20,578 bases of DNA from a virus: UHGV virus genome UHGV-1749955; one strand, 5' to 3'. Numbering within the stretch: the stretch's first letter is position 1; each line of letters starts with the position of its first letter. This document shows, one piece after another, positions 3,001 to 20,578 of the stretch. Both the position numbers and the translations under genes were made by a program. Below the pieces are notes generated by a model, which was not told the DNA's origin, searched no databases, and was given only the letters and a program-made list of their open reading frames with translations.

Positions 3001-3169
3001 CCTCACTGTCCAGCACCGGCGTACTGTTCAGCAGCACGCTTTTTAATCCGTCCACCGGACCTTCAACCGGCCCTTCGCTGATGGCATCGATCACACTCAG
3101 CAGCTGCGTGGACTTCAGGTTGTCCTTCGCTTCGCGCGGGGTATGCCCCTTACTGCTGCCTTTACCCAT
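1..3169 (-). CDS. J: Tail tip / host-specificity protein J (central tail fibre), N-terminal ~1056 codons; 3' part lies beyond the left window edge
   Basis: ATG at 3169-3167 on the minus strand, with GGAG about 9 nt upstream. My hand translation begins [53 protein letters not shown], which I recognise as lambda J. The frame stays open to position 1; the track lists no minus-strand ORF here, consistent with no stop inside the window. Position after I matches lambda. Confidence 0.92.
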
Positions 3170-3191
3170 TCGTCATGCTCCATAAACGACA

Positions 3192-3211
3192 AAACCGCCC
3201 GCAGGCGGTTT
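3192..3211 (-). terminator. GC-rich stem-loop in the I-J intergenic gap (AAACCGCC-cgca-GGCGGTTT), followed on the minus strand by UGUCGUUU; terminator-like or RNA-stabilising hairpin
   Basis: Perfect 8-bp inverted repeat read directly from the sequence; it lies between the I stop (3230) and the J start (3169). Confidence 0.4.
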
Positions 3212-3229
3212 CACATAAAACATTTTGCA

Positions 3230-3901: not shown

Positions 3902-4542
3902 TTGTCGGTATACCTCTCTCGTTTGCTCAGTTGTTCAGGAATATGGTGCAGCAGCTCGCCGTCACCACAGTAAATGGCGGCATGATTCGGCACCGATGAA
4001 CCAAAACAGCACAGCAGCACATCGCCCGGCTGCGCCGCTGACAACGGCACCTGATACAGCCCTGTGGCCTCCAGATTATCCAGATAGAGATTCTGACCGT
4101 GACGCCACCAGTCATCCTCGCGATGAAAATCCGGCATCTCAATCCCCGCCAGATGGTAAGCATCCCGGAACAGCGTGTAACAGTCCGTCACCCCGTGCTC
4201 AAAGCGCCGCCCGGTAAGATGTGGCACACAGCGGAACTTGTGAATCGCCCCCCGGCAGACCAGCCACCACGGCAAATCACTCTGCACCTGCAGCCGCCGG
4301 TCGGCCTCACTCAGCCAGGGCAGACCACCGGGGTGGCTGTGGACCAGCGCCACAATCTCACCCTGCATCTCTGCCTGCAGCCAGTCTTCCGGCGACATAC
4401 GGAAATACGCCTCCGGCTCACCGGAGATATTCACGCAGGGGAAATATCTTTCCCCCTCCGGCGTTCTCACCACGAAGCCGCACGACTCCGCTGGCGCACA
4501 TCGCCGGGCGTGCGCCAGAATCGCTGATTCTGTCTCTGTCAT
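3799..4542 (-). CDS. K: Tail tip assembly protein K, long form with MPN/JAMM-type motif (E-x-C-G ... H-S-H-x7-S-x2-D)
   Basis: 247-aa ORF; its C-terminal 199 aa (MSPEDWLQAEMQGEIVALVHSHPGGLPWLSEAD...) match lambda gpK as classically annotated. The ATG at 4542 is 5 nt after the L stop, and the extension carries AESCGF, a plausible JAMM catalytic Glu. Start choice is uncertain (4542 versus internal Met at about 4398). Confidence 0.85.
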   Translation of the reverse strand: MTETESAILAHARRCAPAESCGFVVRTPEGERYFPCVNISGEPEAYFRMSPEDWLQAEMQGEIVALVHSHPGGLPWLSEADRRLQVQSDLPWWLVCRGAIHKFRCVPHLTGRRFEHGVTDCYTLFRDAYHLAGIEMPDFHREDDWWRHGQNLYLDNLEATGLYQVPLSAAQPGDVLLCCFGSSVPNHAAIYCGDGELLHHIPEQLSKRERYTDKWQRRTHSLWRHRAWHASAFTGIYNDLAAASTFV

Positions 4543-4547
4543 GGGAT

Positions 4548-5246
4548 TTACTGCGAAAGTTTGTTAATGGAAAGGAAGCCGCCAAAGTTGCCGACGTTAT
4601 TGCGGAACTTACAACCGCTCAGGCATTTGCTGCATTTATCCTTCGTGATATCGGACGTTGGCTGGTCATATTCATCCGCGACCGCCGGACCGTGATAACC
4701 GCACTCATCGCCGCGATAGGTCCAGGTGCAGGTGTTGGCCAGCATGATACGTCCCGGAAAAACGGCACCGTCCGTTTCCGTCGGCGTGGACAGTACAAAA
4801 GAGGCACTCACCGCGCTCAGTTCGCTGCACTGCTCAATGCGCCAGCGGCTGATCACCTCCTGCTCCGGATCGGCGTCACTGTTTCCGTTGACGAAGTTCA
4901 CCGCATCCAGAAAACGGGCGTAAACCTTACGCCGGACCACCGTTCCGCCGACCAGACTCTGCAGATCTTCCGCCATCCCGGTGACCATACCGTACAGGTT
5001 AGAAACCGTCAGCGTGGGGCGCGTACTGGTGCCTTTGCCATTCAGTTCAAAACCACTCCCCTGAATGGGATACGGCTGATACTGTCGCCCCTGCCAGGTG
5101 ACCGGCTCACCTTTTTCGTTCTGCTCATTACAGAAAAAATAACGTTCTCCACCGACCTCTGTCAGATCGATTTCCCAGAGCACCACCTGGGCTGACTGAG
5201 TGAGGCGTGTCGTCTCATGATGTGTTTCCTGTGGAATATCCTGCAT
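4548..5246 (-). CDS. L: Tail tip protein L
   Basis: 232-aa ORF (MQDIPQETHHETTRLTQSAQVVLWEIDLTEVGGERYFFCNEQNEKGEPVTWQGRQYQPYPIQGSGFELNGKG...) recognised as lambda gpL, with the same length. Confidence 0.93.
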   Translation of the reverse strand: MQDIPQETHHETTRLTQSAQVVLWEIDLTEVGGERYFFCNEQNEKGEPVTWQGRQYQPYPIQGSGFELNGKGTSTRPTLTVSNLYGMVTGMAEDLQSLVGGTVVRRKVYARFLDAVNFVNGNSDADPEQEVISRWRIEQCSELSAVSASFVLSTPTETDGAVFPGRIMLANTCTWTYRGDECGYHGPAVADEYDQPTSDITKDKCSKCLSGCKFRNNVGNFGGFLSINKLSQ

Positions 5247-5255
5247 CAGGGCCTC

Positions 5256-5585
5256 CTATGCCACGACCTGTTCAAAATCTGCCGTTATGGTTACCCACAG
5301 CGCCCCCACGCTTGCCGACCATTTACGACAAACCACCCTGATCGGCTTCCAGTCATAAGGTGGCGTCCACTGAAATGCGCGGACGCCACCGTGCCGTTCC
5401 AGAAAGGCTTTTAAAGATGGGTGTTCACATTTACGAACACGTATCGTCACGCTGTAAGTCGACAACTGGTTATTCAGTCCCGCCGCACGACGCTGTTCAT
5501 AACCATCGCCCAGCTTCACTGTCACCACTTTCGGCTCTGATACCACATTCATATCCGGGCGCACTTTCCAGTGAAACGTCTCCAT
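5256..5585 (-). CDS. M: Tail tip protein M
   Basis: 109-aa ORF (METFHWKVRPDMNVVSEPKVVTVKLGDGYEQRRAAGLNNQ...) recognised as lambda gpM; its start overlaps the H stop. Confidence 0.93.
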   Translation of the reverse strand: METFHWKVRPDMNVVSEPKVVTVKLGDGYEQRRAAGLNNQLSTYSVTIRVRKCEHPSLKAFLERHGGVRAFQWTPPYDWKPIRVVCRKWSASVGALWVTITADFEQVVA

Positions 5586-8146
5586 TACCGATATGCTCCA
5601 CTTAACCGACCACCATCACGGGCCTGCTGTTGCATAAAGTCCGCTGCCGCTTTTTTCCCGAGGTCATAAACCGCCTTCAGGGCAGCCGGACCTATCTGCC
5701 CGTTCGTGCCGTCGTTGTTAATCACCACATGGTTATTCTGCTCAAACGTCCCGGACGCCTGCGACCGGCTGTCTGCCATGCTGCCCGGTGTACCGACATA
5801 ACCGCCGGTGGCATAGCCGCGCATCAGCCGGTAAAGATTCCCCACGCCAATCCGGCTGGTTGCCTCCTTCGTGAAGACAAATTCACCACGGTGAACAATC
5901 CCCGCTGGCTCATATTTGCCGCCGGTTCCCGTAAATCCTCCGGTTGCAAAATGGAATTTCGCCGCAGCGGCCTGAATGGCTGTACCGCCTGACGCGGATG
6001 CGCCGCCACCAACAGCCCCGCCAATGGCGCTGCCGATACTCCCGACAATCCCCACCATTGCCTGCTTAAGCAGAATTTCTGTCATCATGGACAGCACGGA
6101 ACGGGTGAAGCTGCGCCAGTTCTGCTCACTGCCGGTCAGCATCGCCGCCATATTCTGTGCAATACCATCAAAGGTCTGCGTGGCTGCACTTTTTACCTGC
6201 GACATACTGTCCGTGGCGCTCTCTTCCCACTCACTCCAGCCGGACTTCAGGCCTGCCATCCAGCTCCCGCGAAGCTGGTCTTCAGCCGCCCAGGTCTTTT
6301 TCTGCTCTGACATGACGTTATTCAGCGCCAGCGGATTATCGCCATACTGTTCCTTCAGGCGCTGTTCCGTGGCTTCCCGTTCTGCCTGCCGGTCAGTCAG
6401 CCCCCGGCTTTTCGCATCAATGGCGGCCCGTTTTGCCCGTTGCTGCTGTGCGAATTTATCCGCCTGCTGCGCCAGCGCGTTCAGGCGCTCCTGATACGTA
6501 ACCTTGTCGCCAAGTGCAGCCAGCTGGCGTTTGTACTCCAGCGTCTCATCTTTATGCGCCAGCAGGGATTTCTCCTGTGCAGACAGCTGGCGACGTTGCG
6601 CCGCCTCCTCCAGTACCGCGAACTGACTCTCCGCCTTCCACAAATCCCGGCGCTGCTGGCTGATTTTCTCATTTGCTCCGGCATGCTTCTCCAGCGTCCG
6701 GAGTTCTGCCTGAAGCGTCAGCAGGGCAGCATGAGCACTGTCTTCCTGACGATCGCCCGCAGACACCTTCACGCCGGACTGTTTCGGCTTTTTCAGCGTC
6801 GCTTCATAATCCTTTTTCGCCGCCGCCATCAGCGTGTTGTAATCCGCCTGCAGGATTTTCCCGTCTTTCAGTGCCTTGTTCAGTTCTTCCTGACGGGCGG
6901 TATATTTCTCCAGCGGCGTCTGCAGCCGTTCGTAAGCCTTCTGCGCCTCTTCGGTATATTTCAGCCGTGACGCTTCGGTATCGCTCTGCTGCTGCGCATT
7001 TTTGTCCTGTTGACTCTGCTGCTCAGCCTTCTTTCGGGCGGCTTCAAGCGCAAGACGGGCCTTTTCACGATCATCCCAGTAACGCGCCCGCGCTTCATCG
7101 TTAACAAAATAATCATCCTTGCGCAGATTCCAGATGTCGTCTGCTTTCTTAAACGCAGCCTCTGCCTTAATCAGCATCTCCTGCGCGGTATCAGGACGAC
7201 CAATATCCAGCACCGCATCCCACATGGATTTGAATGCCCGCGCTGTCCTGTCTGCCCAGGTCTCCAGCGTGCCCATGTTCTCTTTCAGGCGGCGGGTCTG
7301 GTCATCAAACCCTTTCGTTGCGGCCTCGTTCGCCGCCTGCAATGCCCCGGCTTCATCGCCGGAACGCTGCAACTGAGCAACATACGCAATCTGCTCCGCC
7401 GTCACGTTATGGAACTGACGTGCCATCGCTGTCAGTCCCGACGTCGGGTCTGTGGTCAGCTTCCCGAAGGCTTCAGCGACCTTGTCCACCTCCACGCCGG
7501 ATGCAGAGGAGAAACGCGCCACACTCTGGCTGATGGATGCAATCTGAGCCTCACCGCTTACTCCCGCCTTAACCAGTGCGCTGAGTGACTCGCTGGTCTG
7601 GTTAAACGTCAGCCCTGCCGCCTGCCCGGCTCTGGACAGGACCAGCATACGATCTGCCGTCAGTCCTGCCTGATTACCGGAAAGGACCAGCGTTTTGTTG
7701 AAATCGGACAGGGTTGAGTTGCCCTGATACCAGGCATACGCCAGCGCACCGGTCGCCACCGCCAGCGAGGTGGCCCCGACCATCGGCAGGGTGATCGCAC
7801 CGGCAAGCCCCCGGAACATGGGGATCATCCCGCCGAAGGAGTCCTTCACCTGACCGCCCTGTTGCAGCAGGATCAGCCACGGACTTTGCCCGCCTGCAAG
7901 CTGCGTGGCCACGTCGGTGAACTGTGCAGGCAGCATACGCATGGCGGCTTTATACTGCCCGACGGAAATCCCCGCTTTCTGTGCAGCCAGCGCCTGTCGG
8001 CTCAGCGACTGTTCAACGACTGCCGCTGTTTTTTTCGCATCACTTTCCGTACCGGAAAAATGACGCCTGACTCTGGCCATCTGCTCGTCAAATCTGGCCG
8101 CATCCAGACTTAAATCAACGACCAGATCGCCTACCGGTTCAGCCAT
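5585..8146 (-). CDS. H: Tail tape measure protein H
   Basis: 853-aa ORF, same length as lambda gpH; N-terminus MAEPVGDLVVDLSLDAARFDEQMARV; long coiled-coil-like Ala/Gln/Lys/Glu-rich centre and Gly-rich C-terminal part typical of tape measure proteins; its start overlaps the T stop. Confidence 0.95.
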   Translation of the reverse strand: MAEPVGDLVVDLSLDAARFDEQMARVRRHFSGTESDAKKTAAVVEQSLSRQALAAQKAGISVGQYKAAMRMLPAQFTDVATQLAGGQSPWLILLQQGGQVKDSFGGMIPMFRGLAGAITLPMVGATSLAVATGALAYAWYQGNSTLSDFNKTLVLSGNQAGLTADRMLVLSRAGQAAGLTFNQTSESLSALVKAGVSGEAQIASISQSVARFSSASGVEVDKVAEAFGKLTTDPTSGLTAMARQFHNVTAEQIAYVAQLQRSGDEAGALQAANEAATKGFDDQTRRLKENMGTLETWADRTARAFKSMWDAVLDIGRPDTAQEMLIKAEAAFKKADDIWNLRKDDYFVNDEARARYWDDREKARLALEAARKKAEQQSQQDKNAQQQSDTEASRLKYTEEAQKAYERLQTPLEKYTARQEELNKALKDGKILQADYNTLMAAAKKDYEATLKKPKQSGVKVSAGDRQEDSAHAALLTLQAELRTLEKHAGANEKISQQRRDLWKAESQFAVLEEAAQRRQLSAQEKSLLAHKDETLEYKRQLAALGDKVTYQERLNALAQQADKFAQQQRAKRAAIDAKSRGLTDRQAEREATEQRLKEQYGDNPLALNNVMSEQKKTWAAEDQLRGSWMAGLKSGWSEWEESATDSMSQVKSAATQTFDGIAQNMAAMLTGSEQNWRSFTRSVLSMMTEILLKQAMVGIVGSIGSAIGGAVGGGASASGGTAIQAAAAKFHFATGGFTGTGGKYEPAGIVHRGEFVFTKEATSRIGVGNLYRLMRGYATGGYVGTPGSMADSRSQASGTFEQNNHVVINNDGTNGQIGPAALKAVYDLGKKAAADFMQQQARDGGRLSGAYR

Positions 8147-8573
8147 ACCGGACTCCTCCTGCGATCCCTTCTGATACTGTCATCAGCATTACGTCATCCT
8201 CCGTCATGTCCGCCACATCCGGGGAAGTGGGGATAACTTCATTCCCGTCCGGGCCAAAGCGGACGCCTCCGGCAAGCCCTGCCGCTTTCTGCATCAGCAC
8301 ATCATCTTCAGGCTCTTCGTCAGCCTCGCGCCGGTTCAGCAGACTGAAATCCAGCGGATGCATATCCGGATCGCTGAAAAACAGGCTGAGCACGGTGTAC
8401 GTCAGCCCGGAAAAGTGCATATCCAGCAGAACATCATGAAAATAATGGGTACTGTAAAAGCGGTGCCAGTCGGCATACTCCGTGGATGACATCCCGGCAA
8501 GCATGGCGCGCCAGTCGGGTCGCCCCATCTCACGCGCCAGTTTCAGGGCAAAACTCAGCTCACCGTCGAACAC
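8139..8573 (-). CDS. T: T segment of the tail assembly chaperone, expressed as a G-T fusion by -1 programmed ribosomal frameshift
   Basis: Open frame in the -1 frame relative to G, beginning at the slippery site (the track start is GTG, not an independent start); protein ...FDGELSFALKLAREMGRPDWRAMLAGMSSTEYADWHRFY recognised as lambda gpT. Confidence 0.85.
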   Translation of the reverse strand: MFDGELSFALKLAREMGRPDWRAMLAGMSSTEYADWHRFYSTHYFHDVLLDMHFSGLTYTVLSLFFSDPDMHPLDFSLLNRREADEEPEDDVLMQKAAGLAGGVRFGPDGNEVIPTSPDVADMTEDDVMLMTVSEGIAGGVRYG

Positions 8574-8977
8574 TTTCCCGCAGAAACAGGCTCTGCAGGC
8601 CCGGCGTCCTCTGTCTGTTCAGGGGCATTATTCACCACAAACTCATACATACCGGACAGCCGGTACACCACGTTTTCAGCATGAGAAATTGCCTCCGTGG
8701 GCCAGGTGGTAAGCACTTCCTGCTCAATCTGTTTAACGGCTTCATTCATGGACGGCATCTGCGTCTTCTGCGGATGGTTATGCCACAGGGACATCGCCAC
8801 CAGAAACGCGCCGGTTCTGATGGCGTCTTCCACAGTAAACTTCCGGTTGCTGTCTGACTCCGCCTGTTCTGCCTGCCGTTTCATCAGGGCGAGATGCTCA
8901 ATACGCTGCAGGGCTGACAGTTCAGAAAGCGTGACGGTCACACCGTTATGTTCAAATGATTCGGTTTTCAGGAACAT
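8555..8977 (-). CDS. G: Tail assembly chaperone G
   Basis: 140-aa ORF (MFLKTESFEHNGVTVTLSELSALQRIEHLALMKRQAEQAESD...) recognised as lambda gpG; ends ...AGKCSTVS with the slippery site embedded. Confidence 0.92.
   Translation of the reverse strand: MFLKTESFEHNGVTVTLSELSALQRIEHLALMKRQAEQAESDSNRKFTVEDAIRTGAFLVAMSLWHNHPQKTQMPSMNEAVKQIEQEVLTTWPTEAISHAENVVYRLSGMYEFVVNNAPEQTEDAGPAEPVSAGKCSTVS
8573..8579 (-). other. -1 programmed ribosomal frameshift slippery heptamer G GGA AAG at the end of G
   Basis: Plus strand CTTTCCC at 8573-8579 is GGGAAAG on the minus strand, in G frame as Gly-Lys, 5 codons before the G stop; this matches the known lambda G/GT frameshift site. Confidence 0.8.
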
Positions 8978-8992
8978 CTCTGACTCCCCGGA

Positions 8993-9733
8993 TTAACTGG
9001 CGGTGACGGTGATTTCTGCAACCGCAGCAAGTTCACCATTACCGGATACAACCGGAATGTTGACCTTGCCTGCAGCAACGCCGTTCACGGTGATGGTCAT
9101 ACCACTGACCGACACGGTGGCTTTTGTTTTATCCGCAGACACCGCACGGAAGCTCTTGTCGGTTGCGCCTTCCGGCTGGAATGCCACGGTCAGCGTGGTG
9201 CTCTGCCCTTTCACCACCGAGGTGCTGGCAGGCGTCACGGTCATGCCGGTTGCCGCTGTTACCGTGCTGCGATCTTCTGCCATCGACGGACGTCCCACGT
9301 TGGTGACTTTCACCGTGCGGGTGATCACTTCCTTCGCCGTCACCGCCTTACCGATACTGCTGACCCAGCCACGGAACACATCGACCGTGCCGTTCGGGAA
9401 GCGGATTTTATAGGCACGGGTATCACCTTCATTAAACCACGCCAGCAGCGCCTGCTGCCCCTGCTCTCCGGGCATCCACGCCAGCGTGAAGCTGGTATCT
9501 CCGGCAGATTTCTGCCCCTGCCCGGTCGCAGTCCAGTCCGCATCTTCATCATCGAGATAGCTGTCGTCATAGGACTCAGCGGTCAGTTCGCCGGGCGTCA
9601 GGTCTTTAACTTTTGCCAGACGCGACCAGTCAACGTCTGAAAGCGGGTTCGCATAAGGGTCACCGCTCCCCTTATAAACCCACAGGGTGGTCCCGGCACC
9701 TTTCACCGGCATTACAGGATTTGGTACAGGCAT
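8993..9733 (-). CDS. V: Major tail tube protein V
   Basis: Track ORF is 256 aa; the lambda-length start is the internal Met ([43 protein letters not shown]...), giving 246 aa; C-terminal Ig-like region ...[18 protein letters not shown]. Confidence 0.92.
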
Positions 9734-9740
9734 AGCGTCC

Positions 9741-10136
9741 TCACATTTCATAGGTAATGACATAAGTCAGATCGGCTGAACTCCACAGGCCCGCATCATC
9801 GTCGCGCCGGTAGTCATAGCCACTGGCCACCATACTGGTGATCAAATCTGACAGTGCCGGGATATCGCTCATCACCGGATAAATCCGGGACTCCATCCAC
9901 GCATCCAGCTCTGAATCCGGCACCTGAGCAGGCAGGAAAACTTCAATATGCAGCTCCGCCTGCCAGGTATCGCTGTCCAGCTCTTCGCCCGTGTATTCAG
10001 CGCCGGTGAGATAAACGGCAACTGCCGGAAAATCCGCCTCATCAAAAACAGCGGGGCGACCATCAAAAAACGTCGCCCCGGTGTCATGCTTCTCCAGTGC
10101 ATCCAGTACGGCTGCACGGAGTTCAGTATGTTTCAT
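9741..10136 (-). CDS. U: Tail terminator protein U
   Basis: 131-aa ORF ([54 protein letters not shown]...) recognised as lambda gpU; overlaps Z by 4 nt. Confidence 0.93.
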
Positions 10137-10711
10137 CGCTTTATTACCATTCTCAGTTGATGCTGCAGCGCATAGCCCAGCTCTTTCGGAAGACGTTCAC
10201 GCCGTATCCGTTCAATATTCTGTTTAAACGCCGTGGTCAGCGGCACCGCCATCGGGATTTTCACCACATCAATGGGGTAACGGTTTTTCCCGGCCACACG
10301 CTGCATGACATGCCACCGGCCATTTTTCAGTTGCTGAATAAACGCGCCGGGAATACGACGGTTTCCCACCACAAGCACGCTGCCGCCACCTTTCAGGGCT
10401 GAACGCTGCCCCTTTTTACGACGTCTGCGGCGGGAAAGGACAACCCGCGCGTTACCCAGCTTGATTACGGGCAAATCCCCCCGGTTAACCCTGATTCTGG
10501 CCTGCGGATTTTTGACCGTGGCCCTTTTCAGCCTGGCCCTTTCCTTTACCAGTTTCCGGCGTACCTTTGTCTCACGGGCAACCTGTGCCGCCGACTGCGA
10601 TATCGCGGATGAAGCAACGCGGTTAATGGCCATTGCGGCGGCACCAGGCACCGCCGTTTTGCTGATACGGCTGAGGTTTTCAACGGCCTGCTCAAGACCT
10701 TTTATGGCCAT
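10133..10711 (-). CDS. Z: Tail completion protein Z
   Basis: 192-aa ORF (MAIKGLEQAVENLSRISKTAVPGAAAMAINRVASSAISQ...) recognised as lambda gpZ. Confidence 0.93.
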   Translation of the reverse strand: MAIKGLEQAVENLSRISKTAVPGAAAMAINRVASSAISQSAAQVARETKVRRKLVKERARLKRATVKNPQARIRVNRGDLPVIKLGNARVVLSRRRRRKKGQRSALKGGGSVLVVGNRRIPGAFIQQLKNGRWHVMQRVAGKNRYPIDVVKIPMAVPLTTAFKQNIERIRRERLPKELGYALQHQLRMVIKR

Positions 10712-10722
10712 ACATCCCCCTT

Positions 10723-11076
10723 TCAGCGGCGACGGTTAACGGCAGGCGGTACGCCCCGCCCAAGCCAGAGATGACAGCTTCCGCCATCATCCGGCGTAAC
10801 CCGATCTACCCAGAAGTTTTCCTCACCGATGATCAGCGTGTCTCCACGCCGCAGCTGCCGCACATCATCAGTCCGGACAAACAGGGACGGGCTGGAGCCT
10901 TCAACGCGCACGCCCTGTCCGGCATAGCTGATATTTTCAGGGTCATCAAAAACACCACGTATCACAGCACCGGACTGCTCACCGGATGTCATGGTGGCTG
11001 ACGTTCCCATGTACCCGCGTATCGTTTCATCGGCGCGGGCAATGGCAGCATCGAACAGGTTATCGAAATCAGCCAC
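10723..11076 (-). CDS. FII: Head-tail connector protein FII
   Basis: 117-aa ORF (MADFDNLFDAAIARADETIRGYMGTSATMTSGEQSGAVIRGVFDDPENISYAGQGVRVEGSSPSLFVRTDDV...) recognised as lambda gpFII. Confidence 0.93.
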   Translation of the reverse strand: MADFDNLFDAAIARADETIRGYMGTSATMTSGEQSGAVIRGVFDDPENISYAGQGVRVEGSSPSLFVRTDDVRQLRRGDTLIIGEENFWVDRVTPDDGGSCHLWLGRGVPPAVNRRR

Positions 11077-11087
11077 AGCGCCTCCCG

Positions 11088-11483
11088 TTATTGCATTCTG
11101 GCCAGGCCGCGCTCTGTCATTTCGGCTGCCACACCGGCAGAGACACGAAACGCCGTTCCCGGCAGCACAAATGCCACAGGTTCATCCCGCGTGGCGTGAA
11201 GTGCATCGGTATGCAGCGTCACCAGTGCCACAACCGTGACCAGAGCAGCCGTATCAGTCACGGTATCCGTCTGTGCTGATACCACCTCATTTTCATGTCC
11301 GGTCAGCGCATTTTCCGGGCTGACAGACGAGTCCTGACCGGCTGCGTCATCCGTGTCATCAAGCTCCTCTTCCAGCTCTGCCACACGGAGCGCCAGTTCT
11401 TCTTTCGTCCCCGTCAGGCTGACATCACGGTTCAGTTGCTCACCCAGCACCTGAAGACGGGCAATCAGTTCATCTTTCGTCAT
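11088..11483 (-). CDS. FI: DNA packaging / head assembly protein FI
   Basis: Lambda-like start MTKDELIARLQVLGEQLNRDVSLTGTKEELALRVAELEEELDD at the internal ATG 11483, preceded by GGAGGAG; the track's upstream ATG (11522) lies inside the hairpin after E and is rejected. Confidence 0.9.
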   Translation of the reverse strand: MTKDELIARLQVLGEQLNRDVSLTGTKEELALRVAELEEELDDTDDAAGQDSSVSPENALTGHENEVVSAQTDTVTDTAALVTVVALVTLHTDALHATRDEPVAFVLPGTAFRVSAGVAAEMTERGLARMQ

Positions 11484-11504
11484 GGACTCCTCCACAGAGA
11501 GAAA

Positions 11505-11522
11505 ATGGCCCCGAAGGGCCAT
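11505..11522 (-). terminator. Stem-loop directly after the E stop: ATGGCCC-UUCG-GGGCCAU on the transcript, followed by UUUCUCUCU; terminator-like or mRNA-stabilising hairpin
   Basis: Perfect 7-bp inverted repeat with a UUCG tetraloop, read directly from the sequence; 2 nt downstream of the E stop. Confidence 0.45.
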
Positions 11523-11524
11523 GA

Positions 11525-12550
11525 TTACGCCAGTTGTACGGACACGAACGCATCAGGGTCAGCCAGCAGCATCAGCGGTGCAGACTGAATCATGGTGAAC
11601 TCACGCGCCGGATCGCCGGTGGTCACCCAGTTTTTCGGGTAGCGGGCAGAGGCGTTAATGCCTTCGCGCTGTGCGTCCGCATCCTGAATGCAGCCATAGG
11701 TGCGCAGACCGCGTGCCTGAGTGTTCCCCAGCACCATCGTGTTGTCCGGCAGGAAGTTCTTTTTGACGCCGTTTTCCACGTACTGTCCGGAATACACGAC
11801 GATGGCCACATCGCCATACATCCCCTTATAGGACACCGCTTTGCCCAGGTCTTTTACCGCTGTCTCCAGCTCGGAATGAGAGCCGCGACGGGTATCCAGC
11901 TTCTCCTTGACGGCTTTGAAGGAACGGAACAGCGCCCAGCCTTTCGGATCAAACACGATGATATTCACCACGCCGCTGGCGTTCAGCGCGTAGGCTTCGA
12001 TATCGTCGGTCGGGTCATACGTGGACTTGTCACGCTTGCTCCACTCCGTGCCGCCGGACTGCGTGATGTTGTTCGCCGCACTGCGGCCCATATCCACCTC
12101 AACCGGATCGAAGGCTTCACCGGTCATGGTGTATTTGCCCTTAAGCACGGCAGAAACTGCCTGCATCTCTTCGACCTGAGCAATGGCCAGCTCTTCGTCA
12201 CGCATGTTCTGCATGATGATGCGACGGCGGCGGTAAGCCGGGTCCGCCAGATTCTGCGGATCTTCATCCGGCAGGCGACGCAGGGTCATCTGCGGATTCA
12301 CTTCATGCTTCGGCTTGACATATCCCGGCGTAAATTCAGAGGTGGAGCCGCCACGGGAACGGATAACCTCACCGGAAACAATCGGCGAAACGTACAGCGC
12401 CATGTTTACCAGTCCCGGAATTTGTGAGAGATAGACTTTCTCCGTGGTGAAGGGATAGCTCTCACGGAAAAAGAGACGCAGAAACAGCGGATCAAACTTA
12501 AATTTCTGCTCATTTGCCGCCAGCAGCTGGGCGGTTGTGTACATCGACAT
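11525..12550 (-). CDS. E: Major capsid protein E
   Basis: Lambda-length product (341 aa) starting MSMYTTAQLLAANEQKFKFDPLFLRLFFRESYPFTTEKVYLSQIPGLVNMALYVSPIVSGEVIRSRGG; recognised as lambda gpE; the track's 9-codon upstream extension is rejected. Confidence 0.95.
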   Translation of the reverse strand: MSMYTTAQLLAANEQKFKFDPLFLRLFFRESYPFTTEKVYLSQIPGLVNMALYVSPIVSGEVIRSRGGSTSEFTPGYVKPKHEVNPQMTLRRLPDEDPQNLADPAYRRRRIIMQNMRDEELAIAQVEEMQAVSAVLKGKYTMTGEAFDPVEVDMGRSAANNITQSGGTEWSKRDKSTYDPTDDIEAYALNASGVVNIIVFDPKGWALFRSFKAVKEKLDTRRGSHSELETAVKDLGKAVSYKGMYGDVAIVVYSGQYVENGVKKNFLPDNTMVLGNTQARGLRTYGCIQDADAQREGINASARYPKNWVTTGDPAREFTMIQSAPLMLLADPDAFVSVQLA

Positions 12551-12563
12551 AAAAAAATCCCGT

Positions 12564-12588
12564 AAAAAAAGCCGCACAGGCGGCCTTT
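12564..12588 (-). terminator. Intrinsic-terminator-like hairpin between D and E: GCCGC-cugu-GCGGC followed by UUUUUUU on the minus-strand transcript
   Basis: Plus strand reads aaaaaaaGCCGCacagGCGGC; on the minus strand this is a GC stem followed by seven U, 18 nt after the D stop. Confidence 0.5.
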
Positions 12589-12605
12589 AGTGATGAAGGG
12601 TAAAG

Positions 12606-12938
12606 TTAAACGATGCTGATTGCCGTTCCGGCAAACGCGGTCCGTTTTTTCGTCTCGTCGCTGGCAGCCTCCGGCCAGAGCACATCCTCATAACGGAACG
12701 TGCCGGACTTGTAGAACGTCAGTGTGGTGCTGGTCTGGTCAGCAGCAACTGCAAGAATGCCAACGGCAGCACCGTCGGTGGTGCCATCCCACGCAACCAG
12801 CTTACGGGTGGAGGTGTCCAGCATCAGCGGGGTCATTGCAGGCGCTTTCGCACTCAATCCGCCGGGCGCGGTTGCGGTATGAGCCGGGTCACTGTTGCCC
12901 AGCGGCTGGTAATGGGTAAAGGTTTCTTTGCTCGTCAT
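12606..12938 (-). CDS. D: Head decoration protein D
   Basis: 110-aa product [68 protein letters not shown]... recognised as lambda gpD; the track's 2-codon extension is rejected. Confidence 0.93.
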
Positions 12939-12947
12939 AAACATCCC

Positions 12948-13553
12948 TTACACTGGTGTGTTCAGCAAATCGTTAACGGCATCAGATGCCGGGTTACCTG
13001 CAGCCAGCGGTGCCGGTGCCCCCTGCATCAGACGATCCAGCGCAGTGTCACTGCGCGCCTGTGCACTCTGTGGTGCTGCGGCCAGAATGCGGCGGGCCGT
13101 TTCCACGGTCATACCGGGGGTTTCGGCCAGCACGCATGCCTGTTCTTCGCGTCCGTGAGCCTCCTCACAGTTGAGGATCCCCATAATGCGACTGTTTTCT
13201 GCCGCAACCGCTGCGGTGATCTGCGCGTTCACGTCCGGCTGCGCAGCGCTGGCGTTCTCGCCCTCCGTCGCTTGCACCACGCCAGTAACGTCAGCCTGCG
13301 AAGCAGTGGCTGAAACAGTTGTTGATTGAGTCTCTTTGGTCATTCGCCCTCCTGAGAGACGGGATTTACGTGCATCCAGTGCATCACGCATGACGGTGAT
13401 CGCATCGGTACTGTTCACAAGTTCATCAGCCAGTCCGGCATCAATGGCCTCCTGACCGCTGTACACTGCAGCCTCGGTATCCAGCACAGCCTGCACGGAC
13501 AGGCCGGTATATGCCGACACCTTCTGTGCAAACATCCGGCGGGTTGCATCCAT
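12948..13553 (-). CDS. Nu3: Scaffolding protein Nu3, nested in-frame in the 3' third of C
   Basis: Internal ATG at 13553 in the C frame (MDATRRMFAQKVSAYTGLSVQAVLDTEAAV...), at the position expected from lambda coordinates; shares the C stop. Confidence 0.8.
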   Translation of the reverse strand: MDATRRMFAQKVSAYTGLSVQAVLDTEAAVYSGQEAIDAGLADELVNSTDAITVMRDALDARKSRLSGGRMTKETQSTTVSATASQADVTGVVQATEGENASAAQPDVNAQITAAVAAENSRIMGILNCEEAHGREEQACVLAETPGMTVETARRILAAAPQSAQARSDTALDRLMQGAPAPLAAGNPASDAVNDLLNTPV

Positions 13554-14247
13554 CCGGGACTGCAGTGTTTCCCGGACATCATCCGGTAGATGGCTGTAGG
13601 GGTTGCCATCCACCTTATGGCTGCCGCTGTAAATCAGCGTGATTTCCACGCCCTGTTTCTCCAGCGCAGCACCGTAATTACTGTGAGCCATCATGACGCC
13701 GATGGAGCCTGTCCGGGCGGTCTGCGTGACCAGACGCCGGGAGGCGGCGCTGGCAAGCAGCTGACCTGCACTGCAGTTCATGTCGTTGGCCAGCGCCCAT
13801 ACCGGTTTTATGTCTCGCACACGGGCGATGATGTCAGCACAGTCAAATGCTCCCGCCACCATCCCGCCCGGTGTGTCCATATCCAGCAGAATGCCGTCCA
13901 CCATCGGATCGCTGGCAGCCTGTTGCAGACGGGCGATAATGCCGTTGTAACCGGTCATCCCCGAATACGGCTGCAGCGCCCGCGTCCGGCTGACCAGCGT
14001 GCCGGACACCGGCAGCACGGCGATGCCGTTCATGACCTGATAACTGCGGGCCTGTCGTGGTCCGTCATCATCAACGGATAACGCCAGCGCCGCGGGTGCC
14101 TCTCCGGCAGTCAGGCTGTCGCCGGACACCGCATCCGTCAGGCGGCTGATCCCAAGCTGGCCTGCAAGCGCACAAAAGAAAACCCGCGCATAGGCGGGTT
14201 CAAGCATCAGCGGCTCATTAAAGGCCATGCTGGCAATATGCGGGAGA

Positions 14248-14267
<20 letters not shown>
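12948..14267 (-). CDS. C: Head maturation protease / scaffold fusion protein C (ClpP/S49-like peptidase)
   Basis: 439-codon frame starting at GTG 14267, preceded by GAGGAGGAG and overlapping the end of B by about 20 nt as in lambda; product VTAELRNLPHIASMAFNEPLMLEPAYARVFFCALAGQLGISRLTDAVSGDSL... recognised as lambda gpC; the track start 14402 is an upstream in-frame extension. Confidence 0.9.
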
Positions 14268-17948
<3,681 letters not shown>

Positions 17949-17974
<26 letters not shown>

Positions 17975-18494
17975 TCAGCAACCCCGGTATCAGTTCATCC
18001 AGCGCGGCTGCTTTGTTCATGGCTTTGATGATATCCCGTTTCAGGAAATCAACATGTCGGTTTTCCAGTTCCGGAAAACGCCGCTGCACCGACAGGGGGA
18101 TCCCGTCGAGAATACTGGCAATTTCACCTGCGATCCGCGACAGCACGAAAGTACAGAATGCGGTTTCCACCACTTCAGCGGAGTCTCTGGCATTTTTCAG
18201 CTCCTGTGCGTCGGCCTGCGCACGCGTAAGTCGATGGCGTTCGTACTCAATAGTCCCTGGCTGGAGATCTGTCTCGCTGGCCTGCCGCAGTTCTTCAACT
18301 TCCCGGCGCAGCTTTTCGTTCTCAATTTCAGCATCCCTTTCGGCATACCATTTTATAACGGCGGCAGAGTCATAAAGCACCTCATTACCCTTGCCACCGC
18401 CTCGCAGAACGGGCATTCCCTGTTCCTGCCAGTTCTGAATGGTACGGATACTCGCGCCGAAAATGTCAGCCAGCTGCTTTTTGTTGACTTCCAT
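17949..18494 (-). CDS. Nu1: Terminase small subunit Nu1
   Basis: 181-aa ORF (MEVNKKQLADIFGASIRTIQNWQEQGMPVLRGGGKGNEVLYDSAAVIKWYAERDAE...) recognised as lambda Nu1; it sits next to cosB as expected. Confidence 0.95.
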
Positions 18495-18509
18495 TGTTCA
18501 TTCCACGGA

Positions 18510-18645
18510 CAAAAACAGAGAAAGGAAACGACAGAGGCCAAAAAGCTCGCTTTCAGCACCTGTCGTTTCCTTTCTTTTCAGGGGGTATTTTAAATAAAAA
18601 CATTAAGTTACGACGAAGAAGAACGGAAACGCCTTAAACCGGAAA
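18510..18645. promoter_or_regulatory. cosB: terminase (Nu1) binding elements R1, R2, R3 with an intervening A/T-rich IHF-type site
   Basis: Three copies of the CGTTTCC/GGAAACG core (about 18517-18532, 18569-18584, 18627-18642) in alternating orientation, with taaataaaaacattaagtta between R2 and R3; the layout matches lambda cosB as I recall it. Confidence 0.7.
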
Positions 18646-18671
18646 ATTTTCATAAATAGCGAAAACCCGCG

Positions 18672-18684
18672 AGGTCGCCGCCCC
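18672..18684. other. cosN: 12-nt cohesive-end sequence (reverse complement of GGGCGGCGACCT), junction of phage left and right ends
   Basis: Plus strand AGGTCGCCGCCC followed by cgtaacctgtcggatcaccggaaaggacccg, the reverse complement of the lambda right-end sequence ...GGGTCCTTTCCGGTGATCCGACAGGTTACG. Confidence 0.85.
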
Positions 18685-18882
18685 GTAACCTGTCGGATCA
18701 CCGGAAAGGACCCGTAAAGCGATAATGATTATCATCTACATATCACAACGTGCGTGGAGGCCATCAAACCACGTCAAATAATCAATTATGACGCAGGTAT
18801 CGTATTAATTGATCTGCATCAACTTAACGTAAAAAAAACTTCAGACAATACAAATCAGCAACACAGAATACGGGACAACCTC

Positions 18883-19116
18883 ATGTCAACGAAGAACAGA
18901 ACCCGCAGAACAACAACCCGCAACATCCGCTTTCCTAACCAAATGATTGAACAAATTAACATCGCTCTTGTTCAAAAAGGGTCCGGGAATTTCTCAGCCT
19001 GGGTCATTGAAGCCTGCCGCCGGAGACTGTGCTCAGAAAAAAGAGTTTCGCCTGAAGCAAACAAAGAAAAGAGTGACATTACTGAATTGCTCAGAAAACA
19101 GGTTAGACCAGATTGA
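18883..19116 (+). CDS. Small ribbon-helix-helix (Arc/MetJ/CopG-like) DNA-binding protein, 77 aa; resembles the ynfO/ybcW-type proteins next to cos in E. coli cryptic prophages (assignment from memory)
   Basis: ATG at 18883 (MSTKNRTRRTTTRNIRFPNQMIEQINIALVQKGSGNFSAWVIEACRRRL...): basic N-terminal arm, a beta-strand motif R-N-I-R-F-P, helix A, a G-S-G-N-F-S turn, then helix B, the RHH pattern. The track's GTG start at 18754 has no RBS and is rejected. Confidence 0.6.
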   Translation: MSTKNRTRRTTTRNIRFPNQMIEQINIALVQKGSGNFSAWVIEACRRRLCSEKRVSPEANKEKSDITELLRKQVRPD

Positions 19117-19173
19117 AGCAATCTAGATAATCGTGCAGACTACGCCCCCTCATATCACATGGAAGGTACTACA

Positions 19174-19584
19174 ATGGCTCAGGTTGCCATTTTTAAACAA
19201 ATATTCGATAAAGTGCGAAATAATTTAAACTATCACTGGTTTTATTCTGAACTAAAACGTCACAATGTCTCACATTACATTTACTATTTAGCCACAGAGA
19301 ATATTCATCTTGTTCTTGAAAACGATAATACGGTTTTAATAAAAGGACAGGGTAAGGTTGTAAATGTAAGATTTTCAAAAAATAAATGCCTTATAGAAGC
19401 CACCTTAAAAGGATTCAAATCAGGAGAGTTATCATTTTACGAATACAGGAAAAATCTTGCTACAGCAGGGGTTTTCAGATGGATTACAAATATCCACGAA
19501 AACAAAAGGTATTACTATACCTTTGATAATTCATTACTCTTTACTGAGAACATTCAGAACACTACACAAATATTTCCGCACTAA
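19174..19584 (+). CDS. Hypothetical prophage protein, 136 aa, probably the ydfO/ybcV-like (DUF1398-type) family; function unknown
   Basis: ATG at 19174 preceded by GGAAGG about 7 nt upstream ([67 protein letters not shown]...); the track's ATG at 19159 lacks an RBS. The family assignment is from memory of K-12 Qin/DLP12 genes next to nohA/nohD and needs a database search. Confidence 0.65.
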
Positions 19585-19830
19585 ATCATAACGTCCGGTT
19601 TCTTCCGTGCCAGAACCGGACTCGCTGGCATGATGAAATATGTGTACCCGGTAACCCCGGTGTGCATCGTTTTTGATTATTCCCGCACACTCGCGCAGAA
19701 GGAGTTCCCCGTCGGGCTACGGTCTCTGTTAATACGGGAACACGGCGACGATACAGCGCATGATGTGTCAGGCTTGAATACCTTTATCCTTTAAAAGGGA
19801 TATCAGTTAAGTTATCCCGTGTAGGGTATA

Positions 19831-19866
19831 AGCCATTATCAAAGCCACTCAGTAGCGAATGGCTTT
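19831..19866 (-). terminator. Stem-loop just downstream of the minus-strand membrane-protein ORF (alternative 7-bp stems AGCCATT/AATGGCT or AAAGCCA/TGGCTTT); weak terminator candidate
   Basis: Inverted repeats read directly from the sequence, about 10 nt after the stop at 19876-19878; the U-tract is poor (UUUGAUAAUGG). Confidence 0.3.
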
Positions 19867-19875
19867 TGTAATGGA

Positions 19876-20214
19876 CTATTTAATTAGTGATGCTGCGTAT
19901 TCGATTAGATATAACTTAGGTGCCAACCAGATTTTTAACCATGTCATATTGGTTACTACAGCAATAATAAAACTTACCCACAGAACAAAAACTGCTGCTA
20001 ATGGTAAGATAAGAAAACTAATCTCACCGTTACTTTCCCAAATCATAGTCGGTTTGTATTTAGGCTTTCCCTTCTCCCATGACCATCCTTCATTATCGAA
20101 TATACCAATTTCAACTTTTTGGTACTGTTTTTTCATAAACCAGAAAACCAGCGGGATTGTTGAAATGGCTATTAATGTTTTAATCAGGCTATCAACCATA
20201 TTCCATACCAGCAA
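19876..20214 (-). CDS. Small predicted two-transmembrane membrane protein (107-112 aa), function unknown
   Basis: ORF MLVWNMVDSLIKTLIAISTIPLVFWFMKKQYQKVEIGIFDNEGWSWEKGKPKYKPTMIWESNGEISFLILPLAAVFVLWVSFIIAVVTNMTWLKIWLAPK...: two hydrophobic helices separated by a Lys/Glu-rich loop. Sits in AT-rich DNA; the track start is TTG at 20214 and the first ATG is at 20199. A fully overlapping plus-strand ORF (19859-20218) makes the strand assignment uncertain. Confidence 0.45.
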   Translation of the reverse strand: MLVWNMVDSLIKTLIAISTIPLVFWFMKKQYQKVEIGIFDNEGWSWEKGKPKYKPTMIWESNGEISFLILPLAAVFVLWVSFIIAVVTNMTWLKIWLAPKLYLIEYAASLIK

Positions 20215-20324
20215 CTGATGAACAACATCCGGAATCTGAGCCTGACTGAATGCAATGGCGAATCAATTCCATCGCTGGCCTTCTTCAATAAATCAACAAG
20301 AATTTTATTTGCTTCTTCTTGCAT
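20184..20324 (-). CDS. Small ORF (46 aa from ATG 20324; track gives 61 aa from TTG 20369) overlapping the 5' end of the membrane-protein ORF in another frame
   Basis: MQEEANKILVDLLKKASDGIDSPLHSVRLRFRMLFISCWYGIWLIA; AGGA about 7 nt upstream of ATG 20324; its stop at 20184-20186 overlaps the next ORF by about 30 nt. It may be a coupled small gene or the front half of a frameshifted gene. Confidence 0.3.
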   Translation of the reverse strand: MQEEANKILVDLLKKASDGIDSPLHSVRLRFRMLFISCWYGIWLIA

Positions 20325-20578
20325 GTTTATATCCTGTAAGTTGTAAGCCTGTTCGAGAAAAATAAACAACTACGAGAGACAGAAAAAATATCTCAGGCTC
20401 TCTTTCTATAAGCTTTTAGTTGAGGATGTTCTGCAAAACAAAACTGGTTAGTTATGTAACTGCTTCCGGAATACAACAGCCGACGTGCTACAACGTAAAA
20501 TTCGCTTGATTGTGGCAGTTGAGGAAACAGACTTGCATTTCTCAACATCATCAATAATGACCACATCCGGTACAGGAA

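Follow-up and report, generated by a model that had tools for sequence, protein, structure and literature searches.

The right end of the window, by which we mean the whole 20,578-nucleotide stretch of virus genome UHGV-1749955, raises the question of how many genes its open minus-strand reading frames represent and what these genes encode. The first-pass annotation described three closely packed reading frames in an AT-rich cassette, running in the late-gene direction and converging on a ydfO-like gene. The setting was correctly drawn. The GC content is 0.37 at positions 19876-20578 versus 0.574 at positions 1-18500, the minus strand is the late-gene strand (Nu1 at 17949-18494 and terminase at 16049-17974), and the cassette faces a DUF1398/ydfO-like gene on the plus strand at 19159-19584 (Pfam DUF1398, E = 3.3e-43). 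The count of genes is different: this end of the window holds two accessory genes with no assigned function, not three. On balance, the explanation that we favour for the whole locus is a two-gene accessory insert whose second gene is a frameshifted member of phrog_3054, with the intact family proposed as a membrane protein for envelope conflicts.

The surroundings of the cassette are those of a lambda-like phage. A lambda-type cos on the minus strand at 18514-18683 is composed of cosN (GGGCGGCGACCT, an exact match at 18672-18683) and the cosB R-site inverted repeat (18514-18580), which is also present in the relative L002, and on direct reading the flanks of this cos are lambda-like. This leaves 1.2 kb between the cassette and the right cohesive end of the virion DNA. 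Two genes in that interval (18754-19584), the ydfO-like gene and a YlcI/YnfO-like gene (18754-19116, plus strand; Pfam DUF3950, E = 3.9e-20; NCBIfam YlcI_YnfO_N), occupy the strand opposite to late transcription, and both are neighbours of the cassette rather than members of it. An Rfam search of 18400-20578 returned only spurious miRNA-hairpin matches on the cosB inverted repeat, and a consensus scan for promoters and terminators gave counts at or below chance. Near-identical relatives of this stretch (98.5% DNA identity) occur in E. coli, both as plasmid prophages of the N15-like type and as lambdoid prophages.

Comparison with these relatives shows how the gene model must be read. Three minus-strand frames are indeed open, but the relatives carry two genes, annotated there in intact form with products of 149 and 286 aa; one of the two is frameshifted in the window, and the first of the three frames had been taken in the wrong register. 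The second frame (20184-20369; 61 aa, or 46 aa from the ATG at 20324) and the third (19876-20214; 112 aa, or 107 aa from its ATG) had been proposed as separate genes, and both are parts of a single 149-aa gene in relatives such as L002. In an alignment with two relatives, the window was identical to E. coli VTB96815v over 739 nt save for one missing base, a G lost from a GG pair at 20260 (plus-strand context AATGGC[G]GAATC). The resulting gene (19876-20324, minus strand; phrog_3054, the Sf6 gene 34 family; WP_021512246 in relatives) measures 449 nt instead of 450, and the uninterrupted frame of approximately 130-150 codons expected of phrog_3054 members is split at 20260. As read in the window, 20184-20324 contains 22 native codons followed by 24 out-of-frame codons, and 19876-20214 corresponds to codons 38-149. 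The PHROG profiles trace the same break: the second frame matches phrog_3054 positions 1-22 (E = 9.8e-05), the third matches positions 38-137 (E = 2.9e-35), and the restored 149-aa protein matches positions 1-137 of 137 (E = 8.1e-59).

The frame at the right edge is open to a TGA at 20393-20395, as had been reported, and spans 61 codons, but this frame, which carries ...FAEHPQLKAYRKRA, is the wrong one; it has no family match and is shut after 76 codons in relatives. The true edge frame ends in ...VFRKQLHN and a stop codon, and its C-terminus is identical to that of the annotated 286-aa gene of L002. Positions 20448-20578 (minus strand) thus hold the 3′ end of a 286-aa gene (phrog_2571; WP_021512245 in relatives), consisting of the last 42 codons and a TAA at 20448-20450, and the remainder of the gene lies beyond the contig end. 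The 42 codons match phrog_2571 positions 250-291 of 291 (E = 8.6e-21), which covers only the C-terminal 15% of the protein; a full-length relative matches the same profile with E = 6.7e-164. A model of three separate small genes, with an edge ORF ending at 20393, an ORF of 46-61 aa and a membrane protein of 107-112 aa, has in its favour that all three frames are mechanically open. However, the second and third frames align to consecutive stretches of one family profile, and the first lacks both homologues and conservation as an ORF, and we give this model almost no credence. Two further candidates were rejected. Programmed frameshifting is contradicted by the relatives, all of which encode the protein in a single frame, and an antisense gene on the plus strand (ORF 19859-20218) has no family match, while the substitution pattern fits the minus frame.

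We consider the window copy of the 149-aa gene to be probably a pseudogene, in which the 1-bp deletion truncates the product after 22 native codons. The third frame on its own is unlikely to be functional, because its product would be without the strongly conserved N-terminal 37-42 residues. The competing explanation is that the deletion at 20260 is an artefact of low-coverage assembly or sequencing, so that the phage itself would carry an intact, functional gene. The sequence is a metagenome contig at approximately 6x coverage (NODE_1753_length_20578_cov_6.1, ENA ERZ1303446); of the 43 complete E. coli genomes with this stretch, all have the extra base and an intact 149-aa gene; and the remainder of the window gene is 100% identical to VTB96815v, so that no further decay has accumulated. 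All of these observations suit an artefact. However, frameshifts are not a general feature of the contig, since its large late genes are without exception intact, and every other large gene of the 20.6-kb contig is open as well. Moreover, the base was lost from a 2-nt run and not from a long homopolymer, and single frameshifts are common in the accessory genes of prophages. An artefact is therefore a doubtful explanation in our judgement, although one with a substantial minority share, and a genuine pseudogene is the reading with which we proceed.

The insert itself is best described as cargo. The relatives show the gene order S-R-Rz-DUF4406-286aa-149aa-cos-Nu1, which bears out the suggestion of accessory, moron-type cargo and supports the view that the AT-rich insert was acquired horizontally between the lysis genes and cos of a lambda-like phage. 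Elsewhere the same slot holds unrelated genes: a KilA-N gene in the prophage L011, bor with lambdap78 and lambdap79 in lambda, and Dcm with gp59 in N15. The Rz-cos slots of lambda (bor/lambdap78/lambdap79) and N15 (gp56-gp59) resemble that of the window in their position by the lysis genes and cos and in a shared linker, but the genes there are different ones. Neither window protein has a counterpart in P22, in the post-lysis region of N15 or in the two accessory regions of lambda that were tested, in agreement with the earlier remark that the cassette has no recognisable lambda counterpart.

The shared linker is a conserved lambdoid sequence that marks the boundary downstream of the cassette (19572-19759) and shares 82% identity with the bor-lambdap78 interval of lambda; a query stretch containing it had matches, mostly partial, in 3,491 of 5,426 E. 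coli genomes. In L002 the linker forms direct repeats at 5920-6107 and 7704-7890 that are 86-98% identical, and a second, partial copy upstream of the 286-aa gene is found in L001, L017 and L019 and is absent in L012 and L020. In the relatives with this second copy, the two-gene insert is therefore bracketed by direct repeats. A hairpin (approximately 19828-19879, core stem 19841-19866, minus strand) overlaps the stop codon of the 149-aa gene. The stem-loop noticed on first reading is well founded, with an RNA fold of -26.1 kcal/mol (z = -5.92) and none of 200 shuffles as stable. The hairpin has no clean T-run on the minus strand, and the consensus terminator scan made no call on it; it could serve both convergent transcription units as a terminator or stabiliser.

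Little resembles the 286-aa protein. An exhaustive HMMER search of 1.84 billion representatives returned 12 matches, one full length and the rest fragments; the protein has 15 close clusters and 2 phage records, and phrog_2571, annotated as being of "unknown function", is confined to N15-like and lambdoid phages of Escherichia/Shigella. Two weak remote matches contained no Pfam domain, the PDB sequence profile search returned only Wzc (E = 0.51), PADLOC-DB v2 gave no match, and the AF2 model reached a pLDDT of 48.6. A P-loop NTPase assignment (MinD/ParA/BY-kinase-like) for the C-terminal domain was rejected, as significant similarity together with a Walker A motif (GxxxxGK[ST]) was not found. 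The 123-nt spacer that separates this gene from the 149-aa gene (20325-20447, minus strand) contains a Shine-Dalgarno sequence, AGGA, at 20332-20335, 7 nt upstream of the ATG at 20324; the scan of the spacer yielded nothing above chance and no convincing promoter or terminator.

The cassette had been treated as a unit, and the two genes could in principle form an abortive-infection, defence or toxin/antitoxin module in which a cytoplasmic sensor and a membrane effector move together. In 28 complete E. coli genomes the two are neighbours on one strand, direct repeats of approximately 190 nt flank the pair, and the general architecture, a soluble protein of approximately 280 aa followed on the same strand by a membrane protein of approximately 145 aa, recalls RexA/RexB. 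However, 15 genomes carry the 149-aa gene without a full 286-aa gene and 7 carry part of the 286-aa gene without the 149-aa gene, so the pairing is not obligate. There are hundreds of contexts in which the 149-aa gene is found without its partner, among them the same slot of E. coli strain 135, where it follows Rz, and the 286-aa protein has essentially no relatives, as against at least 1,501 clusters for the 149-aa family. The resemblance to RexA/RexB also fails in detail: neither protein has a Pfam RexA/RexB match, hhalign against RexB gave a probability of 0.09%, RexB has four transmembrane helices and the 149-aa protein two, and the 286-aa and 149-aa genes are independently distributed. 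There was likewise no significant PADLOC match, the best E value of the 149-aa protein against the PADLOC-DB v2 defence models being 0.049. We regard a two-gene module as improbable and treat the genes as independent.

The 149-aa protein is the more informative of the two. The first-pass annotation saw a two-transmembrane protein with a charged loop, and two hydrophobic segments (approximately residues 43-65 and 98-135 of the full protein) and a loop with 7 K and 6 D/E are indeed present, but the ORF of 107-112 aa in which they were seen is only part of the protein. Hydropathy, family alignments and the AF2 model agree on a pair of hydrophobic helices between the conserved N- and C-terminal motifs, QIPDVVHQLLxW and WLKIWxAPKLYLxEYAAxL. 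The AF2 model is of mediocre quality (pLDDT 68), has helices at H2-68, H106-125 and H128-148, and has no structural neighbour. The family fold consists of an N-terminal helix of approximately 40 residues, two transmembrane helices that form a hairpin around a variable loop, and, at the C-terminus, an amphipathic helix of approximately 23 residues. The topology is ambiguous, with 7.5 K+R in the loop versus 5.1 in the two termini. The window copy shares with phrog_3054 its restored length, the two transmembrane segments, the conserved motifs and a full-length profile match; it differs in the 1-bp deletion, which is found in none of the 43 E. coli relatives, and in its late slot, most temperate relatives having the gene in the early-left operon.

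Constraint is distributed unevenly along the protein. Among 64 homologues, mean pairwise identity is 0.86 at the N-terminus, 0.58 in the first transmembrane helix, 0.58 in the loop, 0.35 in the second transmembrane helix and 0.88 at the C-terminus, and the loop varies from 14 to 39 residues across the family. We compared alleles by pN/pS, the ratio of nonsynonymous to synonymous differences per site. The C-terminal 23 codons gave 0.04-0.07 (11-14 synonymous versus 2-3 nonsynonymous differences between late-slot and early-operon alleles) and codons 1-63 gave 0.14-0.30; these low values in the termini indicate that the 149-aa gene is a real coding gene. The central region gave 0.4-2.0, with values above 1 in the three closest pairs that rest on 1-5 synonymous differences and may reflect mere relaxed constraint or recombination. 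One allele, that of L020, is a mosaic of the late-slot and early-operon types.

None of the searches supplied a name that would explain this protein. Pfam, NCBIfam and PADLOC produced no match for either protein or for four distant members of the 149-aa family, and a PDB sequence profile search with the family found none. A literature search on PhiR46, the PHROG identifiers, the accession numbers and Sf6 gene 34 brought up nothing relevant and no characterised homologue for either protein. The only name that any source attaches to the 149-aa family is "Phage transmembrane protein" (UniRef), with RefSeq WP_021512246 being a "hypothetical protein", and phrog_3054, which includes the gene 34 protein of Shigella phage Sf6 and phi92 gp220, is annotated as being of "unknown function".

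With sequences grouped into clusters at 90% identity, the family comprises 461 clusters in a search with a single sequence and at least 1,501 in a profile search, and the names among the profile-search matches listed are all hypothetical or uncharacterised, with no named relative. It is present in 178 phage genome records, virulent and temperate, including N4-like, phi92-like, Vibrio, Pseudomonas and Ralstonia phages. In P22-like and lambdoid prophages, the gene lies directly after N in the early-left (pL) operon and has a different downstream neighbour each time; in N4-like phages it is found in early regions; and in Vibrio phage 466E53-1 it is an opposite-strand insert between the tail-completion and head-closure genes. 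The family is thus stand-alone and mobile, with ever-changing contexts that are usually early operons. The earlier expectation of locus-specific, lysogen-type cargo does not fit a family that is common in virulent phages and in the early operons of temperate ones.

With regard to the function of the intact family, our analysis leads us to propose, tentatively, an inner-membrane protein for envelope conflicts that resembles the exclusion protein Imm of T4. T4 Imm, P22 SieA and HK97 gp15 are phage inner-membrane superinfection-exclusion proteins, and T4 makes Imm early. Like them, the 149-aa family consists of small stand-alone phage membrane proteins with no fixed partner and varying positions; like Imm, it is made early by virulent phages, which is a likeness of putative mode and not of membership. 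The family profile gave hhalign probabilities of 0.9% against SieA and 0.6% against SieB of P22, Pfam SieB (PF14163) was not matched, and the 149-aa protein had no Pfam match to exclusion families at E<=1. The family also differs from the exclusion proteins in that its genes in temperate phages mostly sit in a repressed early operon and not behind a lysogen-active promoter. Under the proposal, the inner-membrane protein would be made in lytic growth, early in most phages, and in slots of the window type the gene would probably be read through from the late promoter. Acting alone, the protein would hold its conserved N- and C-terminal helices on one membrane face, where they would bind a conserved host envelope component, and the fast-evolving loop and second transmembrane helix would tune specificity. 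The infected cell would be shielded from envelope interference, and the likeliest form of this would be the blocking of DNA entry by superinfecting phages, as with T4 Imm.

Two other functions deserve comparison with this proposal. The family could consist of early membrane proteins with a counter-defence or host-takeover role, which would neutralise a membrane-acting abortive-infection system of the host or remodel an envelope function. Its place directly after N in pL operons, which is the slot of ral and P22 gene 17 and lies upstream of kil, cIII and abc, agrees with such a role, as do the early or middle regions that it occupies in virulent N4-like and phi92-like phages and its variable centre. 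However, no known anti-defence protein resembles the family, its surroundings show no conserved partner gene of host or phage, and in the phage type of the window the gene sits in the late operon next to cos; we consider this function unlikely, but worth keeping in view. The neighbours of the gene in temperate phages, where it mostly occupies the pL operon, are ral, gene 17, abc and kil, and they are no less a hint of counter-defence or host takeover than of exclusion. Alternatively, a lysis-timing component (a holin, an antiholin or a releasin-like protein) would explain the position after S-R-Rz, given that the protein is small, has two transmembrane segments and lies downstream of holin, endolysin and spanin in N15-like and lambdoid relatives. 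However, linkage to endolysin and spanin is seen only in these N15-like and lambdoid late-slot relatives and in none of the P22-like, lambdoid early-operon, N4-like, phi92, Vibrio, Klebsiella or Pseudomonas phages; most members belong to early operons at a distance from the lysis genes, a setting in which a holin would be lethal. Moreover, the relatives already have a holin, five family members gave no Pfam holin match at E<=1, hhalign gave 0.4% against lambda S and 0.3% against a class II holin, and the C-terminus is hydrophobic and amphipathic rather than highly charged. A lysis role is accordingly very improbable in our view, and envelope conflict is the function that we retain as a working proposal.

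For the window, the import of these results is small: the gene model is corrected, its sole complete gene is probably dead, and the insert is an ordinary and probably inactivated cargo slot. The 286-aa orphan is narrow cargo that travels in the lysis-cos slot between N15-like plasmid prophages and integrated lambdoid prophages. Wider interest attaches to the Sf6 gp34-like family, because it is among the more widespread uncharacterised phage membrane proteins, present in virulent and temperate phages of several bacterial orders, and because its evolutionary pattern, with near-invariant termini and a fast-changing centre, is striking. Intact alleles and cultivable phages exist (PhiR46_1, Sf6 and N4-like phages), which makes the family a tractable candidate in screens for exclusion or counter-defence. 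It is possible, although we hold this no more firmly than the likeness to Imm, that phrog_3054 is an unrecognised and very widespread stand-alone class of inner-membrane proteins in envelope conflicts, serving either superinfection exclusion or the neutralisation of membrane-acting host defences. If this is true, a conserved protein of the host envelope would be the docking partner of the invariant terminal helices, and the hypervariable loop and second transmembrane helix would set the specificity.

The minus-strand region at the right end of the contig was read in the first-pass annotation as a cassette of three ORFs. However, its relatives are annotated with two genes, encoding 286 and 149 amino acids, in the order S-R-Rz-DUF4406-286aa-149aa-cos-Nu1. 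By megablast, window positions 19653–20578 are covered in 28 of 5,426 complete E. coli genomes and in one phage (PhiR46_1), at up to 98.5% identity. In an alignment with two relatives, the only difference between the window and E. coli strain VTB96815v over 739 nt is the loss of one G of a GG pair at window position 20260. The second and third ORFs of the earlier reading are present at 20184–20369 and 19876–20214, but putting the G back fuses them into a single 149-aa protein; in PHROG profile matches, they correspond to positions 1–22 and 38–137 of phrog_3054, respectively. Two minus frames are open at the right window edge. The frame previously taken as the first ORF, which ends ...FAEHPQLKAYRKRA before its stop, is indeed open from the edge to the TGA at 20393, but it is the wrong frame: it has no family match and closes after 76 codons in the relatives. 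The other edge frame (...VFRKQLHN, stop at 20448–20450) encodes the C-terminal end of the 286-aa protein annotated in the relatives, with a match to positions 250–291 of phrog_2571. Therefore, the cassette consists of the tail of one gene and one frameshifted gene. The frameshifted gene is of a mobile phage membrane-protein type that stands alone and evolves under purifying selection; the copy in the window is disrupted, and the gene whose tail lies beside it is an orphan. PHROG catalogues the families of both without a characterised function, and RefSeq already includes intact copies.

All 43 complete E. coli genomes holding this stretch lack the deletion at 20260: against the 141-nt query, each contributes 142 aligned nt. 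The window corresponds to a metagenome contig in full (ENA ERZ1303446, NODE_1753_length_20578_cov_6.1, listed for two samples), and its low coverage of approximately 6x means that single-base calls and joins across repeats call for care. We consider an assembly error at this base to be rather unlikely, and the 149-aa gene is probably inactive in this contig. A 160-aa protein on a 91-kb NCBI contig (P0135) shows the 286-aa frame running straight into the frame of the supposed first ORF (...FAEHPQPKAMKKRA...), followed by the next gene; this protein is a decayed relative and a second case of frameshift decay of the cassette, in another genome. Other elements of the first-pass annotation, which is partly confirmed overall, were upheld. 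The membrane protein has two hydrophobic segments and a charged loop, a very stable hairpin (−26.1 kcal/mol, z = −5.9) lies directly 3′ of the stop codon, and the GC content drops from 0.574 in the backbone to 0.37 in the AT-rich cassette region.

The contig derives from a lambda-like phage with its late genes on the minus strand. Gene J runs open to the left window edge (1,057 codons) and is followed by tail and head genes, the terminase gene (16049–17974) and Nu1 (17949–18494). Just beyond Nu1 lie the cosB R-site inverted repeat (18514–18580) and, on the minus strand, a cosN site, GGGCGGCGACCT (18672–18683), which matches lambda exactly and has lambda-like flanks; the Rfam matches in the cos region were limited to spurious miRNA hairpins on the cosB palindrome. 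To the right of cos are two plus-strand genes, a YlcI/YnfO-like gene (DUF3950) and a DUF1398/ydfO-like gene (19159–19584), after which the minus-strand cassette region begins. The ydfO-like protein matches phrog_413, which PHROGs labels "head protein", and lambdap78 is labelled likewise in the lambda record. Annotation carry-over seems a better explanation of this label than real evidence, since the gene is small, is transcribed against the late operon and adjoins cos.

The boundaries of the insert can be recognized in its relatives. In PhiR46_1, the plasmid pEC21Z151-46K (NZ_CP101200.1) and two further relatives, L002 and L019, direct repeats of approximately 190 nt of lambdoid linker flank the two-gene insert on both sides (5920–6107 and 7704–7890 in L002); this duplication is absent in the relative L012 and in E. 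coli strain 135. In the window, the linker (19572–19759) shares 82% identity with the lambda sequence separating bor from lambdap78, and the query stretch containing it has matches, mostly partial, in approximately 3,500 of the 5,426 E. coli genomes. The linker has the look of a boundary for recombination, and it contains a plus-strand ORF of 54–58 aa, annotated as a gene in some records. A mosaic joint lies at 19875/19876: many E. coli prophages match 17000–19875 at 99% and then part from the window, precisely where the stop codon of the 149-aa gene lies, to carry a KilA-N gene and a hypothetical gene instead. The exact combination of ydfO and cassette was found in no complete E. coli genome, and the join between them may be chimeric because the joint lies inside a 223-nt shared repeat and the contig has only about 6x coverage.

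The proposal that the region is acquired cargo is borne out, and the accessory slot it fills lies between the lysis genes and cos. The same slot is filled by bor and lambdap78/79 in lambda and by the Dcm methylase and gp59 in N15, and, as had been suggested for lambda, neither cassette protein has a homologue in the lambda or N15 slot regions or in P22. N15-like linear plasmid prophages, which have protelomerase, RepA and SopAB and are filed in E. coli assemblies as circular "plasmids" of 46–62 kb, make up most of the close relatives of the cassette; 14 of the 35 places of the 286-aa gene are on such records. The closest, PhiR46_1 and pEC21Z151-46K, carry a protelomerase, a CyRepA1 replication protein, SopA/ParB, a RelE/ParE toxin-antitoxin pair and lambda-like late genes. 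In N15 itself (gene 57, 4234–4566) and in the N15-like relatives (7938–8249 in L002), the position immediately after Rz is conserved: it is occupied by a DUF4406 gene (nucleoside 2-deoxyribosyltransferase-like). The next gene is a cytosine methyltransferase in N15 and the 286-aa orphan in the relatives, which hints at DNA modification or anti-restriction as the theme of the slot.

Among 64 homologues of the 149-aa protein, mean pairwise identity is 0.86 in the N-terminal 41 residues and 0.88 in the C-terminal 23, versus 0.58 in TM1, 0.58 in the loop and 0.35 in TM2; the family at large has loops of 14–39 residues. The ratio of nonsynonymous to synonymous differences per site (pN/pS) is 0.04–0.07 in the C-terminus, 0.14–0.30 in codons 1–63 and 0.4–2.0 in the centre, where it exceeds 1 in the three closest pairs on only 1–5 synonymous differences. 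Amino-acid changes between close alleles concentrate in residues 64–126, in which L002 and L012 differ by 22 replacements versus 3 silent codon changes. The allele of strain 135 (3187–3636) is a mosaic that joins a late-slot N-terminal half to the loop/TM2 centre of an early-operon allele. The conservation and pN/pS patterns identify the 149-aa gene as a real, selected minus-strand coding gene, and the third ORF of the earlier reading would lack a strongly conserved part. In the AF2 model (pLDDT 68), a long N-terminal helix continues into TM1, and a short beta-hairpin loop then leads to TM2 and a C-terminal helix. Both conserved helices necessarily lie on the same membrane face, and charge counts (7.5 K+R versus 5.1) slightly favour a cytoplasmic loop. 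The protein has no structural neighbour in BFVD and no PDB sequence match; kinship to P22 SieA, SieB, lambda S, RexB and class II holin was rejected, each at <1% hhalign probability.

The 149-aa family comprises 461 clusters with a single-sequence query and at least 1,501 with a profile, and, among the matches listed, no member has a name more specific than hypothetical or "Phage transmembrane protein". Among phages, 178 genomes have it, some of them temperate (Sf6 gene 34, P22-like, lambdoid and N15-like) and others virulent (including N4-like Schitoviridae of Salmonella and Vibrio, phi92-like, a Ralstonia jumbo phage and Pseudomonas phages). Nothing about the cassette is therefore specific to lysogens, and the interpretation in the first-pass annotation is partly supported overall. 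The neighbours of the gene differ between phages. The early-left (pL) operon of P22-like and lambdoid prophages has it directly after N, beside sieB and upstream of cIII/kil, with another downstream neighbour each time (pentapeptide protein, HNH, Nmad5, unknowns). It lies among early or middle genes in N4-like phages, before an AAA ATPase in phi92, near parB in a Klebsiella phage, among small early genes in a Pseudomonas phage, and as an opposite-strand insert between tail-completion and head-closure genes in Vibrio phage 466E53-1. The 286-aa protein has 15 close clusters, all from Escherichia/Shigella, and occurs in two phage records; an exhaustive HMMER search over 1.84 billion representatives returned 12 matches, one of full length, and no Pfam, NCBIfam or PADLOC match was obtained. 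A likeness to Wzc (residues 181–221) was not significant (E = 0.51), and the would-be P-loop lacks GK[ST].

A two-gene defence module formed by the 286-aa and 149-aa proteins is improbable, since the two genes are distributed independently. Both occur together in 28 complete E. coli genomes, but in 15 genomes the late-type 149-aa gene is present and a full 286-aa gene is not, in 7 the 5′ part of the 286-aa gene stands alone, and strain 135 carries the 149-aa gene in the same post-Rz slot without the other gene. This separate occurrence indicates independent cargo rather than an operon-level system. A role in lysis timing is less credible still because of the early-operon locations of the family. 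The main functional rival is counter-defence or host takeover, to which the company of the gene in the pL operon (ral, gene 17, abc and kil) would point, but which we regard as doubtful.

We tentatively suggest that the intact 149-aa protein guards the infected cell at its envelope. Made during lytic growth and placed in the inner membrane, it would dock through its conserved termini on a conserved host envelope component, a host partner being proposed because the carrier phages share no conserved phage partner. The infected cell would thereby be shielded from envelope interference, most likely the entry of DNA from superinfecting phages. T4 Imm protects against such entry, and the proposed role may be likened to it. 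The 149-aa family is a reasonable target for experiments.
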